DNA from: an uncultured Candidatus Saccharibacteria bacterium
GTDB lineage: Bacteria; Patescibacteriota; Minisyncoccia; Phycocordibacterales; UBA2100
Direction of reading: 5' to 3'
DNA: 64,000 bases
NCBI GenBank assembly: GCA_964437185.1
Contig: CAYTFU010000001.1
Location: 101,022-165,021, forward strand
In this document: one piece after another, positions 2,274-15,659 of the stretch
How positions within the stretch are numbered: position 1 is the first letter of the stretch
Layout of the letters: the number at the start of each line of letters is the position of its first letter
Notes under the pieces: generated by a model
Databases searched by the model: none
Told to the model about the DNA's origin: nothing
The model's input: the letters and a program-made list of their open reading frames with translations, nothing else
Position numbers and translations under genes: made by a program

Positions 2274-3322
2274 AATTCAAAGAATTTTTCAATAGAAGTA
2301 CCGACCGAGATATCGCGGAGCGTATGAAACGCGCGACGAAAATTTCAATGGGCGACGCTGTGCGTGATCGCATGCGTGCGCACCTTTCGGAATACACCAA
2401 AATGCGCCCGATCCGCGAAACGCGCGGCGCTCAGGCGCGAATTAATGGCTCATTCACTGCATTTTTTGCTCACATCCGCCCGATGCCCATCGTGGCCGCT
2501 CTTCTCATCATCTCAATCGGCAGCAGCACGGTGAGCGCCGAATCTTCTCTTCCTGGCGATCTCCTCTATCCAATAAAGGTGCACATAAATGAAGGGATAC
2601 GCTCTGCGATCACGCGGACTCCGGAAGCGCGCATTGAATGGGCCGTCGCGCGCGCGGAGCGCCGTCTCGAAGAGGCCGCTATTCTCGAACTCGTCGGCAA
2701 CCTCAGTGAAGCCACGCGCGCGGAGCTCGAAACCAACCTCGATGCGTACGAACAGTACGCACAGGAATCAGGTCAGGGGTACGCAGGGACAGGTGCACTT
2801 CCAGAGTTGGCGGAGAGCGTCGGAGCGATACGCATCGCGCGCCGCAACATCCTCGGCACGCTTGCCGAGGGGCGCAGAGCTGCCCATGTCACTCAGGCTG
2901 CGCAAGCAGAATCAGTAGGCGACGCGTCTACAGCAAACTTTACGATGGAAGCGCCCGAGGCGAGCATCATGAGCGCAAAGGCAGCTGCACCGATCCCCGA
3001 AGCTGCTCCCGCCCTCATGGCCGAAGCTATGGCGACCGATATCGACGATGAGGAGGGGCCCGAAGTCCGAGCGCGAGGGAATCGCACAGCCGCCAAAGTG
3101 CGTATTGGAGCAGCCGAGCGCTTCCTCGAAAAACAGAAAAATCTTGATGAGGGAACGCGGCAAGAAGCGCGCGAACTCCTCCAAGTCGCCCGCGAAAAGT
3201 TTGAGGAAGCCGACGAGAAGTCATCGCATGGCAAGCGCGAAGATGCAACGCGCGAATTTGAGCAGGCGCTCGAAAGCGCGATGCGAGTCGGTGCTGCCCT
3301 TTCTGAAGTGCGCGGAGAGTAG
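2270..3322 (+). CDS. putative anti-sigma factor or membrane protein cotranscribed with the ECF sigma
   Basis: ATGA overlap with the sigma stop. Single TM helix (PIVAALLIISIGSSTV), then a long coiled-coil/acidic extracytoplasmic region. The location fits a typical sigma/anti-sigma pair. Confidence 0.45.
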   Translation: MKFKEFFNRSTDRDIAERMKRATKISMGDAVRDRMRAHLSEYTKMRPIRETRGAQARINGSFTAFFAHIRPMPIVAALLIISIGSSTVSAESSLPGDLLYPIKVHINEGIRSAITRTPEARIEWAVARAERRLEEAAILELVGNLSEATRAELETNLDAYEQYAQESGQGYAGTGALPELAESVGAIRIARRNILGTLAEGRRAAHVTQAAQAESVGDASTANFTMEAPEASIMSAKAAAPIPEAAPALMAEAMATDIDDEEGPEVRARGNRTAAKVRIGAAERFLEKQKNLDEGTRQEARELLQVAREKFEEADEKSSHGKREDATREFEQALESAMRVGAALSEVRGE

Positions 3323-11221: not shown

Positions 11222-11292
11222 GCGGGTATGGTTTAGTGGTAGAACGCGTCCTTGCCAAGGACGAGAGCGGAGTTCGATTCTCCGTACCCGCA
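11222..11292 (+). tRNA. tRNA-Gly (anticodon GCC)
   Basis: Acceptor GCGGGTA/TACCCGC. Anticodon stem CGTCC/GGACG, loop TTGCCAA. T-arm CGGAG-TTCGATT-CTCCG. No encoded CCA. Confidence 0.85.
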
Positions 11293-11436
11293 CTACTTCG
11301 CTCTCGAGCGTAACTCGAGAGCTTCGAAGTGCACAGCACGACCCTTTTCCAGCTGTGAACATTGATGTATCGTGGCGAAGTAGCCCTTCGAAGTTCTTAT
11401 GAGCGTTAGCGAAACAAGAACGAAGTAGGGCATCGC

Positions 11437-11673
11437 ATGCACTACGTATATATTCTTCGGGATTCTGTTGGCCAGCTGTATGTCGGATACTCTGACAACT
11501 TGAAAAAAAGACTGCAGTATCATCTGAGGGGAGATGTTAAGACGACGCAAAAGTATCAGGGTGCAAAACTCATATGGTACTGTGCCTTCGCAAACAAAAA
11601 GAAAGCTCTCTATTTTGAAAGATACTTAAAAGCAGGTTCCGGACATGCCTTTGCGAGAAAACACCTTGTATAA
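11437..11673 (+). CDS. GIY-YIG nuclease family protein (UPF0213/YhbQ-like)
   Basis: 78 aa. VYILRDSVGQLYVGYSDNLKKRLQYH is the GIY-YIG core. Confidence 0.8.
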   Translation: MHYVYILRDSVGQLYVGYSDNLKKRLQYHLRGDVKTTQKYQGAKLIWYCAFANKKKALYFERYLKAGSGHAFARKHLV

Positions 11674-11724
11674 AGCCTTATCGTATCAGGACCTATCCAC
11701 AGGGAGAACCGCTTGACCTTAACC

Positions 11725-11749
11725 ATGTGCTCCCGCCAGGATTCGAACC
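11725..11749. repeat. 25-bp direct repeat of the tRNA-Arg 3' half (T-arm plus acceptor); att-like
   Basis: tgtgctcccgccaggattcgaacct is identical at 11725-11749 and 11876-11900, the latter inside the tRNA-Arg gene. Confidence 0.85.
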
Positions 11750-11877
11750 TTACAGGTTCAGTACACCTTTGCGGTTTTCTCACAGCTCCGCCGCTCGCAA
11801 ACATCGCAAAGGTCTTCGAATCACTGGTCGCACGCAAAGCAGTTTGCGTGCTCGGGAGCACACATGCTTCGCTTGTG

Positions 11878-11949
11878 TGCTCCCGCCAGGATTCGAACCT
11901 GGAACGACAGTTCCGAAGACTGTTGTGATATCCGTTTCACCACGGGAGC
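11878..11949 (-). tRNA. tRNA-Arg (anticodon TCG)
   Basis: Acceptor GCTCCCG/CGGGAGC. D-arm GTGA-AACGGATA-TCAC. Anticodon stem ACAGT/ACTGT, loop CTTCGGA. T-arm CCAGG-TTCGAAT-CCTGG. 72 nt, no CCA. Confidence 0.8.
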
Positions 11950-11971
11950 GTAGGGCATATAATGCACTAAA

Positions 11972-13447
11972 ATGGCCGATATGGAAACACGATTAAACAT
12001 TCCGGAAGAAGCAGGCAATCTTTGCAAGGCACTCAAAGATGCGGGGTTCGAGGCGTATTTAGTGGGCGGCTGCGTGCGCGATTCGCTCCTCAATCGAGAG
12101 CCGAAAGATTGGGACATCACAACCAACGCCACACCAGAAGAAATTCAAAAGCTTTTCTCCGACACTTTTTACGAAAACGATTACGGTACGGTCGGCGTGG
12201 TTACGCAATCTGAAAACCCGCGACTCAAGGTGATTGAGATTACCCCGTACCGCACCGAGGGGAAGTACACGAACGCACGTCACCCTGATTCTGTGGCTTT
12301 TAGCGACACTCTTTCTGAGGATCTGAAGAGGCGCGACTTCACCATCAATGCGATTGCGTACGACCCGATTACGCACACCCTTGTTGATGAACACGGGGGA
12401 AGGGAAGATCTGCTCTCTCGACGCATTAAGACAGTCGGGAACCCCTCAGAGAGATTCGGCGAGGACGCGCTACGTATGCTTCGTGCAGTGCGCCTCTCTG
12501 CAGAGCTCGATTTCGTGATAGATGCAGAAACTGCACAGGGAATCGTGACAAAAGCTGATCAACTCCAAAAAATATCACGCGAACGCGTGCGCGACGAGCT
12601 TATCCGCGTTCTTGAGAGTGACCGCCCGATGCAGGCCCTCTACGTTGCCCAAAAACTCGGCCTCGTGAAACACATCATCCCCGAGCTCGAGGAGGGGATC
12701 GGATGCGCGCAAAACCAGGCGCACTCCTTCGATGTATTTGAGCACCTCATGCGCGCGCTTCAATATGCGGCAGATCAGAAATGGTCACTCGACGTGCGTC
12801 TTGCTGCGCTCCTCCACGACGTAGGCAAGCCAGCGACCCGCCTGTGGTCGGATGAGAAAAAAGACTGGACATTCCATGGACACGACGTCGTGAGCGCAAA
12901 GATGGCCAAACGAATTCTCACTGATTTGCGTTTTCCCAAAGAAACGATCGAAAAAGTTTCCAAGCTCGTGAGGCTTCACATGTTTTTCTCCGACCCCGAC
13001 CAAATCACCCTCTCCGCAGTCCGTCGCGTGATATCAAAGGTTGGTACGGAACATATTACCGATCTCCTCAATCTCCGCGTATGCGATCGCATCGGAACCG
13101 GCCGTCCAAAAGCGCATCCCTTCCGCCTACGAAAGTATATGTCGATGATCGACGAAGCTATGCGAGACCCCGTGTCGGTGGCAATGCTCAAAATAGACGG
13201 CTCAAAATTGATAGAAATTGGGGAAAAGCCGAGCCCCCGCATCGGATGGATATTGCACGCACTCCTCGAAGAAGTGCTCGATGAGCCTGCAAAAAACACC
13301 GAAGAATACTTGCGCGAACGGACCGAACAGCTTATGAAATTGACTGAGGAAGAGTTACGCGCCTTGGGAGAAGCGGGAAAGGATCGTAAGGAGGGAGAGG
13401 ACGAGGCGGCGGTGCAGGAACTGCGGAAAAAACACCGCGTGAGCTAA
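11972..13447 (+). CDS. cca: CCA-adding enzyme (tRNA nucleotidyltransferase) with HD domain
   Basis: Pol-beta NTase head GGCVRDSLL...DWDITT. HD domain LLHDVGKP. This fits the absence of encoded CCA on all three tRNAs. Confidence 0.9.
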   Translation: MADMETRLNIPEEAGNLCKALKDAGFEAYLVGGCVRDSLLNREPKDWDITTNATPEEIQKLFSDTFYENDYGTVGVVTQSENPRLKVIEITPYRTEGKYTNARHPDSVAFSDTLSEDLKRRDFTINAIAYDPITHTLVDEHGGREDLLSRRIKTVGNPSERFGEDALRMLRAVRLSAELDFVIDAETAQGIVTKADQLQKISRERVRDELIRVLESDRPMQALYVAQKLGLVKHIIPELEEGIGCAQNQAHSFDVFEHLMRALQYAADQKWSLDVRLAALLHDVGKPATRLWSDEKKDWTFHGHDVVSAKMAKRILTDLRFPKETIEKVSKLVRLHMFFSDPDQITLSAVRRVISKVGTEHITDLLNLRVCDRIGTGRPKAHPFRLRKYMSMIDEAMRDPVSVAMLKIDGSKLIEIGEKPSPRIGWILHALLEEVLDEPAKNTEEYLRERTEQLMKLTEEELRALGEAGKDRKEGEDEAAVQELRKKHRVS

Positions 13448-14723: not shown

Positions 14724-15659
14724 CTACTTCCTTCGTTTCCCGTGGAACGCCTGATGTACCGACCGAAGGTGCTTGTCGGTGACGTGCGTGTAGACTTGCG
14801 TTGTCGCAATGTTGGCGTGACCCAAGAGCGCCTGCACACTTCGAAGATCCGCGCCATTTTCCAGAAGGTCGGTCGCGAAGCTGTGACGAATTACATGGGG
14901 AGTCACCTTGCGGGTGATGCCAGCCTTGATTGCATACTGTTTCACAAGCCGCTCGACTGATCGAGGTGTAATCCGGTGCAGATCTTGATTGCCACCTTTC
15001 TTGCCCTGCGAAGCTTTGGCGAAGGAGGGGCCGTACGACACAAAGAGCGCGTCGCTCATGTCGCCGCGTTTCTTAATATACGCCGCGACGGCAGCCTTCG
15101 CAGAAGGGGAGAGGAAGACGACACGCACCTTCTCACCCTTACCCCGGACAGAAAACTCATCTCGCGATAGGTCTAAGTCGTGATTCAGACCGCACAGCTC
15201 AGAGACACGGAGGCCCGTGGAGAAGAAAAGCTCAAGAATTGCGCGATCACGCAGGGCTGGGAGCTCCTCACCCTGCGGCGCCTTCAGTATCCTGTTTAAC
15301 TCATCGGCAGTAATGAGGTCGAGATCTCGTCCTCCTACTTTGGCGAGCTCTATGCGCTCAGGGTTCAAAGACTCTATGTCTCGCTTGCGCAAGAATTTGA
15401 GAAACGCGCGCAATGCGATGAGGTGGTAATTCTGCGTATTTTTCTTCATTGTGCCCGACACACCGCCCGATCTATTGAGCGTAATGCGAAACTCCCGGAC
15501 CTTCTGCTCGGTAATCTGAGTAGGGGAGCTCACCTTTGCAAAGTTCAAAAATCGCATGAGGTACCGATCGTAATTCTCAACCGTCTTCACCCCGCGCCCT
15601 TTCTCAATCTCAATGTATTCCAAAAATTGCGTCTTGAGCGACTTCAAATCTGCAGCCAT
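14724..15659 (-). CDS. tyrosine site-specific recombinase, XerC/XerD family
   Basis: N-terminal SAM-like domain. C-terminal catalytic R...HVIRHSFAT...LLGH...TQVYTHV. Confidence 0.85.
   Translation of the reverse strand: MAADLKSLKTQFLEYIEIEKGRGVKTVENYDRYLMRFLNFAKVSSPTQITEQKVREFRITLNRSGGVSGTMKKNTQNYHLIALRAFLKFLRKRDIESLNPERIELAKVGGRDLDLITADELNRILKAPQGEELPALRDRAILELFFSTGLRVSELCGLNHDLDLSRDEFSVRGKGEKVRVVFLSPSAKAAVAAYIKKRGDMSDALFVSYGPSFAKASQGKKGGNQDLHRITPRSVERLVKQYAIKAGITRKVTPHVIRHSFATDLLENGADLRSVQALLGHANIATTQVYTHVTDKHLRSVHQAFHGKRRK

Follow-up and report, generated by a model that had tools for sequence, protein, structure and literature searches.

We analysed a 64-kb stretch of DNA (the window), which carries on its minus strand a tRNA-Arg(UCG) gene at 11877-11949, beside the gene of the CCA-adding enzyme (cca, 11972-13447). 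ARAGORN predicts the tRNA without an encoded CCA, and the Rfam tRNA model matches it at 11878-11949 (64.5 bits, E = 2.3e-13). According to the original prediction, which was made from the letters of the window, a 25-bp direct repeat of the tRNA-Arg 3' end lies downstream of the gene. This repeat is real: the exact 25-mer TGTGCTCCCGCCAGGATTCGAACCT occurs twice, at 11876-11900 and 11726-11750, no third copy with up to three mismatches is found in the 64 kb, and none of 100 shuffles gave two matches. The downstream copy had been placed one base off, at 11725-11749. The start-to-start spacing is 150 nt, and the 125 nt in between, predicted as about 125 bp, contain no real ORF, in line with the claim that the interval lacks coding capacity. 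Copy 1, inside tRNA-Arg and on the minus strand like copy 2, comprises A51 of the T stem, the T loop, the 3' strands of T stem and acceptor, the discriminator and CA. In copy 2, termed the A copy, about 20 nt (C56 to the discriminator plus CA) correspond to the segment that is duplicated throughout the family described below, and the 5' AGGUU is part of the element's own conserved motif AAGGUUCGA. As tRNA-Arg happens to have AGGUU in its T arm too, the repeat extends from the usual length of about 20 nt to 25 nt. The motif AAGGTTCGA of copy 2 is also found in type-2 copies (see below) behind tRNAs for Tyr, Gly and Arg-GCG.

The unit formed by everything between the repeat copies plus one copy spans 150 nt (11726-11875), a spacing within the mode of 120-200 nt seen in the family. 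It lies directly downstream of the tRNA, is co-oriented with it, and both copies (A) and complements (A') the 3' half of the tRNA; all its features are read here on the minus strand, which is the strand of the tRNA. Directly behind tRNA-Arg there is a 9-nt loop (AGCGAAGCA, 11865-11873) of a hairpin in which the tRNA 3' end and trailer face their complement (inverted repeat I3, with 15-nt arms at 11853-11867 and 11871-11885 that are 93% complementary). It is followed by X'a (UGUGUGCUCCCG, 11864 to 11853), an exact match to the complement of the acceptor 3' strand, discriminator and trailer that has a homologue at locus L184, by hairpin H1 (GCACGCAAA-CUGC-UUUGCGUGC, 11851 to 11830, inverted repeat I14) and by X'b (CCAGUGAUUC, 11827 to 11818). 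In the minimum free energy (MFE) folds X'b is the complement, with one bulged U, of GAAUC-CUGG, which is the 3' part of the T loop and the 3' strand of the T stem. Then come the long hairpin P2 (11813 to 11765, inverted repeat I6, also recovered in the folds), which is closed by ACCUUUGCG/CGCAAAGGU, the junction GUACU, hairpin P3 (11764 to 11744) and finally the second copy of the tRNA 3' end. No terminator is found between tRNA-Arg and the element.

The two hairpins named in the original prediction are both present, one with 9-bp arms at 11830-11838/11843-11851 and one formed by CCTTTGCG/CGCAAAGG at 11765-11778/11800-11813. Features that go beyond it are X'a, X'b and a self-closing fold of 133 nt. 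This stretch (11860 to 11728) folds closed with an MFE of -65.7 kcal/mol (z = -6.7, 200 shuffles), because X'a and X'b complement the tRNA 3' end and the repeat. Together with 11736-11744, X'b forms helix P1, whose pairs covary among members of the same type. The interior of P2 is variable between family members, and all five base pairs at its foot show compensatory changes among six members. P3 can be drawn as a 5-bp stem (UGAAC/GUUCG) with an invariant 7-nt loop, CUGUAAG, or as 7 bp with a GUA triloop. The former is the better reading, since CUGUAAG is invariant and flanked by covarying pairs, and the loop looks like an anticodon loop. The check suggested at the outset, a fold of the interval and an Rfam search, thus yielded a stable closed fold and no Rfam family: Rfam 15 matches only tRNAs and noise, both in the window region (E <= 10) and in nine related loci (E <= 1).

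The sequence GUGUACUGAACCUGUAAGGUUCG at 11744-11766 of the minus strand, consisting of the junction GUACU and hairpin P3, identifies the window unit as a member of the rarer of two core types, termed type 2 and marked by GUACUGAACCUGUAAGGUUCGA. Its motif occurs at eight loci behind different tRNAs, with invariant columns in the alignment, and takes the form GUACUGA-NN-CUGUAAG-N'N'-UCGA directly 5' of the copied 3' segment of T loop and T stem. The two variable pairs of the P3 stem, NN and N'N', covary. Thus, besides the window there are seven other loci with this 3' motif, six of them behind tRNAs for Tyr (L184), Gly-UCC, Arg-GCG, Arg-CCU, His and Gly-GCC, and a seventh, L127, where no tRNA was detected upstream. 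The window and the tRNA-Tyr locus L184 share the layout X'a-AG-H1-X'b-GAAGACCUU..AAGGUG-UACUGAACCUGUAAGGUUCGA. A three-way junction of P1, P2 and P3 is present in the MFE structure of four of the six full-length members, including the window; for L127 and L108 the MFE structure prefers an extended P1. In the alignment of the six full members 94% of the cells are paired, 12 of 20 pairs show compensatory changes, and the covariation score is 0.50, compared to 0.165 for shuffled and at most 0.13 for slid controls; the evidence for this type comes from eight copies only.

The second core, type 1, has a P2 with a GGA/GA internal loop and a P3 of the form GGUCGCG..CGUGACC. We aligned nine such cores over two stems (13 of 25 pairs compensatory) and used the alignment as the basis of a covariance model, R1. 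In 80 loci around cca homologues from species-representative genomes (L001-L080), R1 finds about 50 matches, nearly all of them 20-75 nt 3' of a co-oriented tRNA for Arg-TCG, Gly-GCC, Gly-TCC or Pro-TGG. From metagenome contigs, a scan by pattern added 120 further loci, and in the 80 of these on which R1 was run there are 88 matches. The 93 distinct type-1 sequences have 95.8% of cells paired and 22 of 25 pairs with compensatory changes, and score 0.597 for covariation against 0.170 for shuffled and at most 0.075 for slid controls, where the P3 base pairs of the metagenome copies are constant by construction, since that sample was picked with part of P3. Two pairs are predominantly G.U (in 85 and 50 of the 93 copies), and therefore the type-1 fold is possible only on the tRNA-sense strand. 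R1 has no match in the window at E <= 10; the 5' junction of the window unit, GAAGACCUUUGCGAUG, agrees by eye with the type-1 consensus at 16 of 21 positions, and there is no other likeness. By-eye inspection of the type-1 core for K-turn, hammerhead, tmRNA-like or SRP-like features gave no fit. At L084, L086 and L104 there are type-1-like cores with no tRNA within 260 nt upstream and with a closing helix CCGGUC/GACCGG; in other lineages, such cores may also form one of the domains of a larger RNA.

It is well supported, then, that positions 11726-11875 of the window are one unit of a multi-copy family of structured elements of about 100-200 nt, which lie directly behind tRNA and tmRNA genes. 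Equally well supported is the range of the family, Kaiserbacteria and related Paceibacteria within the CPR. Neither of its two core types matches Rfam 15, and we did not find the family described: a full-text search of the literature retrieved no description of such tRNA-flank elements, which does not prove that there is none. Across the 200 related loci the hosts comprise about 19 amino-acid specificities (37 anticodons) and tmRNA. The common layout starts with a tRNA ending in A, followed by a loop or terminator-like hairpin, A', a conserved three-way-junction core and a direct copy of A, where A extends from C56 of the T loop through the discriminator plus a few trailer bases, and A' is its exact complement, often split by H1. 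Element matches lie 20-150 nt downstream of co-oriented tRNAs, and throughout the family the strand of the element is that of the tRNA. A canonical terminator precedes 30% of the type-1 units; about 70% of the spacers have none.

Of 94 pairs of tRNA and core, 54 repeat 10 nt or more of the tRNA end directly, 33 of them from T-loop position C56 onward, and 79 contain 8 nt or more of it in inverted form. The duplicated segment measures 3-29 nt, and in a short class only 3-7 nt at the extreme 3' end. When the 371 tRNAs of these loci are considered, the last 17 nt are copied again on the same strand 43-342 nt downstream in 72 cases, mostly at 120-200 nt. At L184 the element reads GCGCCGG, whereas the 5' strand of tRNA-Tyr reads GCGUCGG; A' is therefore a complement of the 3' strand and not a copy of the 5' half of the tRNA. 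It moreover continues into the complement of the tRNA trailer (12/12 positions in the window, 14/14 in L060 and 16/16 in L061). Its fit to the trailer of its own tRNA exceeds that to the flank of the A copy both in the window, where X'a matches the latter at 10/12 positions, and in L060, where A' does so at 10/14.

Some further features of the family were observed. Type-1 elements also lie behind the tmRNA genes of L081, L146 and L191, and their arms complement the tmRNA 3' end (in L081: GTGGAGGTG ... GCGGGAATCGAA). H1-type hairpins (..AACTGCTT..) are found in L010, L030, L090, L108, L117, L118, L129, L184 and others. The CUGC apical loop of H1 is conserved on stems of unrelated sequence (..AACUGCUU.., ..GCCUGCGC..) in the window (11830-11851) and many loci; the hairpin is positioned ahead of A' in the short class and within A' in the long class. 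Finally, the copied T loop of L081, L090, L109, L133 and L184 carries a mini-insert of 12-17 nt in some cases between GA(A/U) and UCC (for example AGCGTACTCGCGG, AAGTGTACTCACGG), which contains a G-UACU motif as in the type-2 junction.

We assign the window to a member of Candidatus Kaiserbacteria (CPR). The Cca homologues with a named source are labelled Candidatus Kaiserbacteria, Parcubacteria or Patescibacteria, and in nearly all 80 genome loci tRNA-Arg(TCG) lies just upstream of cca, in either orientation. The original prediction had held that a repeat present in all relatives with conserved spacing would speak for a structural RNA. The comparison shows a repeat that is neither universal nor fixed in its spacing: a structured element is present behind tRNA-Arg(UCG) at about 25 of 75 orthologous sites. 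All four closest relatives (80-86% Cca identity) lack it, L006 and L010 (79-80% Cca identity) have an element of a different subtype, and the other three tRNAs of the window are followed by plain terminators and no element. We infer that the window unit was gained at tRNA-Arg(UCG) in this lineage specifically. In the orthologous copies that related species carry behind tRNA-Arg, the helices are preserved by compensatory changes. A look-up of the exact proteins for strain-level polymorphism of the window locus returned nothing on record. We considered the unit as a leader of the cca gene: many relatives have it between tRNA-Arg and cca, all on one strand. This was rejected, since the unit points away from cca about as often, as it does in the window, and is also found behind Gly, Pro and many other tRNAs.

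Several observations concern the surroundings of tRNA-Arg. Upstream of cca, tRNA-Arg(TCG) and tRNA-Gly(GCC) occur in all four orientation combinations among L001-L080 (at about 2600-3000; window 11222-11949), with their position otherwise conserved. Single tRNA genes seem to have been inverted in place, and these flips mark the locus as prone to rearrangement. A 20-nt direct repeat, GTAGGGCAT(CGC/ATA)ATGCACTA, with 85% identity brackets the GIY-YIG gene, the element and tRNA-Arg in the window (11425-11444 and 11950-11969); one copy overlaps the GIY-YIG start, and the other is the upstream region of tRNA-Arg, or cca promoter region. The GIY-YIG gene may itself be an insertion, because among 80 relatives it is present at this site only in L008. 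Behind the tRNA-Arg of L011 there are four tandem repeats of about 27 nt (2865-2975), each ending in CCCAGGGAGCA, which resembles the tRNA 3' end CCTGGCGGGAGCA; neither a type-1 nor a type-2 core is present in them. In the window, the region behind tRNA-Gly(GCC) (11294-11400) contains a perfect 9-bp hairpin, GCTCTCGAG-CGTAA-CTCGAGAGC, and then repeated TTCGAAG motifs in inverted orientation (11318-11332/11383-11397), and belongs to neither type.

An empty and a filled site can be compared directly: L019 differs from L018 by a clean insertion of 127 nt immediately behind ..GGGAGCAC, past which the two flanks align again. Tandem arrays of units are frequent. L134 holds three identical tandem units of 134 nt, and L108, L109, L127, L184, L188 and L196 hold mixed arrays of type-1 and type-2 units, in L108 with nested insertions. 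Truncated copies exist as well, and L021, L031 and L055 carry solitary extra A copies. L136 (9021-10300) has an ORF of 271 aa that separates tRNA-Gln from a type-1 module with its A copy; by eye, the predicted product of this ORF looks like a secreted protein. A 183-aa ORF in L125 (3075-4063), judged by eye to be TrpC-like, lies between two identical type-1 units, between the tRNA and the copy of its 3' end. The T stem of tRNA-Arg(CCT) in L108 is mismatched (GTAGG/CCCGC), while CCCGC is found in A' and in both A copies, as one would expect had the element supplied the present 3' end of the tRNA; it is a single case. As general proof of an element-borne 3' end, chimeric tRNAs were rejected: L108 is the one convincing example, and an automated count showed no enrichment and was dominated by register errors. 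Copies within one genome or locus are no more alike than copies across genomes, tandem copies excepted. Since same-genome copies are not especially similar, there is no sign of recent bursts, and recent intragenomic spread was rejected as a candidate, copies of the same locus likewise being no more similar than others apart from tandem ones. A phage origin was rejected too, because pattern scans of viral contigs returned one genuine type-1 copy (L201) and otherwise chance matches in coding DNA.

We found no recombinase, transposase or reverse transcriptase with the elements. Among nearby genes the original prediction had pointed to a XerC/XerD-type gene (14724-15659) and a GIY-YIG gene. The former has a syntenic counterpart in 53 of 80 relatives, whose tRNA may or may not be followed by an element, and the latter lies beside the tRNA in only one other relative; a link of either gene to the element was dropped on these grounds.

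The unit shares features with several known systems. Tyrosine integrases reportedly leave att duplications that fall into sublocation classes, among them one in the T loop of tRNA and tmRNA genes. The direct repeat from T loop to 3' end, the intact gene, the use of tmRNA and tandem site occupancy are common to these duplications and to the family, and the window unit does show such a repeat around an insert. However, the insert contains no integrase gene or remnant (it consists of 125 nt without a real ORF, and the Xer gene lies outside the unit), and the family differs in its 100-200-nt units with no integrase or any other gene, its inverted copy of the att segment, its conserved, covarying interior, its use of one core behind nearly all tRNA specificities with arms matched to each, and its short class with duplications of only 3-7 nt. 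MITEs and REPINs (Correia/NEMIS, RUP, BOX, REP doublets) are likewise small, non-coding, multi-copy and intergenic, with inverted-repeat arms that form a long hairpin, a patchy distribution and some decayed copies. In MITEs, however, the arms are constant within a family and the target duplications short and fixed, whereas here the outer arms are copied from the adjoining tRNA and the site is always a tRNA or tmRNA 3' end in one orientation. The hallmarks of a MITE were not found: the terminal arms are not constant within the family but follow the host tRNA, the target-site duplications are not of one short length but vary from 3 to 29 nt, and no related autonomous IS was seen in the loci examined.

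Integron attC sites and cassette arrays share with the family arrays of units that end in an imperfect palindrome, conservation of structure over sequence, folding of one strand, a special first site that starts the array and an occasional ORF ahead of the site (as in L136). They differ in that here the T arm of the tRNA is the docking site, the core has a strongly conserved sequence and a three-way junction, and most 'cassettes' are empty; R''/R' boxes (GTTRRRY) are absent from the sequences examined, and no IntI was seen with the units. An acceptor-like helix with a discriminator that ends a non-tRNA transcript is a trait shared with mascRNA (MALAT1 3' end), viral tRNA-like structures and the tRNA-like domain of tmRNA, and the helix of the element may be a point of recruitment for RNase P, RNase Z or the CCA enzyme. 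Unlike these modules, the element has no free T loop or elbow, at least in type 1, and its sequence is copied from the adjoining gene. The Rfam mascRNA model matches only the real tRNA, at 24.5 bits and below its threshold of 42.5. ODIRA and quasipalindrome correction, finally, produce the same direct-inverted-direct order with junctions at palindromes and perfectly complementary arms, but as one-off mutations with no conserved structured core and no recurrence at dozens of gene families.

The explanation we favour, with a confidence of about one half, is that the window unit is a non-autonomous structured cassette which inserts or duplicates, by a mechanism that is inferred, at the 3' ends of tRNA-like genes. 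Insertion would duplicate, or replace and displace, the tRNA 3' segment from the T loop onward; it would leave the tRNA intact and a second A copy behind the element, which would be the repeat that is observed. Further rounds, or unequal exchange between A copies, would give rise to tandem arrays. The A' and A arms would be held complementary to the host tRNA, plausibly via intrastrand template switching in quasi-palindromes. The strand-specific fold, with its G.U pairs on the tRNA-sense strand, would be the part under selection; it could work at the RNA level, in read-through from the tRNA promoter, or at the DNA level, as a folded single strand that is recognised by a recombinase in trans. 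The integrase-type signature proposed in the original prediction survives in part: the geometry of insertion at a tRNA 3' end stands (start at C56, tmRNA targets, tandem arrays, clean 127-nt insertion), a bare integrase scar does not. Similarly, of the three options it offered for the interval the non-autonomous mini-element comes closest. A remnant after deletion and a solo att site had to be abandoned, as the interval is a conserved structured module with inverted and direct copies of the tRNA end and is common to loci behind other tRNAs. Some findings argue against a cassette. No enzyme is associated with it, the nearby Xer gene being a syntenic housekeeping gene, and an internal A' arm that matches each host tRNA is not explained by classical integrase or transposase chemistry. 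Not every member can be derived from one crossover point in the T loop, given that the duplications of the short class measure only 3-7 nt. Moreover, helices kept by compensatory change are expected of an RNA that is useful to the host, not of decaying selfish copies. The missing signs of recent bursts within genomes and the low number of type-2 copies (eight) count against it as well.

Such a host-functional RNA is the strongest rival, and we regard it as possible but rather doubtful. The structured RNA would be co-transcribed with the tRNA; its A'/A helix would mimic a tRNA minihelix for RNase P, RNase Z or the CCA enzyme, or its arms would act as antisense and control the 3' maturation or termination of the tRNA, with a core that would serve to bind protein or RNA. 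In the minihelix variant acceptor and T stem would form one continuous helix with the discriminator retained. The strong covariation and conserved unpaired nucleotides, the G.U pairs that restrict the fold to the tRNA-sense strand, the invariable co-orientation with the tRNA, the terminator-free spacer in the window and in about 70% of type-1 units, the orthologous copies that retain their structure through compensatory changes, and the anticodon-like look of the type-2 P3 loop all favour it. However, the element is dispensable, being missing at two thirds of the orthologous tRNA-Arg sites, in the closest relatives and behind three of the four tRNAs of the window. Truncated, nested and identical tandem copies also argue against a host function, as does the canonical terminator ahead of 30% of the units, and no function demands arms equal to the sequence of a neighbour. 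tRNA-processing enzymes use the elbow formed by T loop and D loop, which the extended helix lacks.

A second rival, which we judge improbable, is that template switching during replication at palindromes (the T arm, the terminator hairpin) produced a functionless direct-inverted-direct triplication of the tRNA 3' end. The order A - A' - A is indeed the signature of an inverted triplication, A' fits the tRNA trailer better than the flank of the A copy, and the orientation flips of tRNA-Arg and tRNA-Gly point to a rearrangement-prone locus. Neither the cores shared at 37 anticodons (type 1, type 2 and the H1 CUGC hairpin) nor the covariation can be explained in this way, but template switching may still be behind the generation or homogenisation of the arms.

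Two further readings are essentially excluded. That the repeat is a plain att scar, left by a deleted phage or ICE at tRNA-Arg or remaining as a solo att site, is very improbable: it would account for a repeat from T loop to 3' end, as at integrase targets, and a tyrosine recombinase gene does lie 2.8 kb away, but relatives that lack the repeat have that gene in synteny too, 72 tRNAs show the same 120-200-nt spacing, and the interval is a structured module conserved at seven other loci, six of which directly follow a different tRNA; it also contains the tRNA end in inverted form, a feature that att scars lack. Scarcely credible is a second tRNA gene with an intron, or a decaying tRNA-Arg pseudogene from tandem duplication, which the interval suggests by starting with GCUCCCG, like the 5' acceptor strand of the tRNA, and ending with a T arm and acceptor 3' half in a cloverleaf-like closure: Rfam (E <= 10) and ARAGORN, with intron search, find no tRNA in it and so dispose of this interpretation with or without an intron, D and anticodon arms are absent and no homology to them is seen, the L184 segment is an exact 3'-strand complement instead of a tRNA 5' strand, and the leader complements the trailer instead of copying the tRNA leader.

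A bolder form of the cassette explanation, which we consider unlikely, is that the units are cassettes of an unrecognised, structure-guided recombination system of the CPR. They would dock at the T arm of any tRNA or tmRNA, in an integron-like manner with the tRNA as attI, and re-templating of their arms to the host tRNA would let the folded RNA or single-stranded DNA present the target in sense and antisense. Alternatively, the processed RNA would be a mimic of a tRNA half, with CUGUAAG as an anticodon-like loop, and would serve as a decoy for tRNA-targeting enzymes.

The repeats of tRNA ends that the units create are open to misreading as borders of prophages or islands, and their tandem repeats are able to break CPR genome assemblies. 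If true, the explanation would mean that genomes of a major class of CPR bacteria each contain dozens of small structured elements, which exploit the T arm, the one sequence common to all tRNAs, and leave the gene intact, each element bearing a sense and an antisense copy of the 3' half of its host tRNA. It would add two new conserved folds of RNA, or of single-stranded DNA, with very strong covariation, and would amount to a new way in which safe havens are targeted in genomes of very small size.
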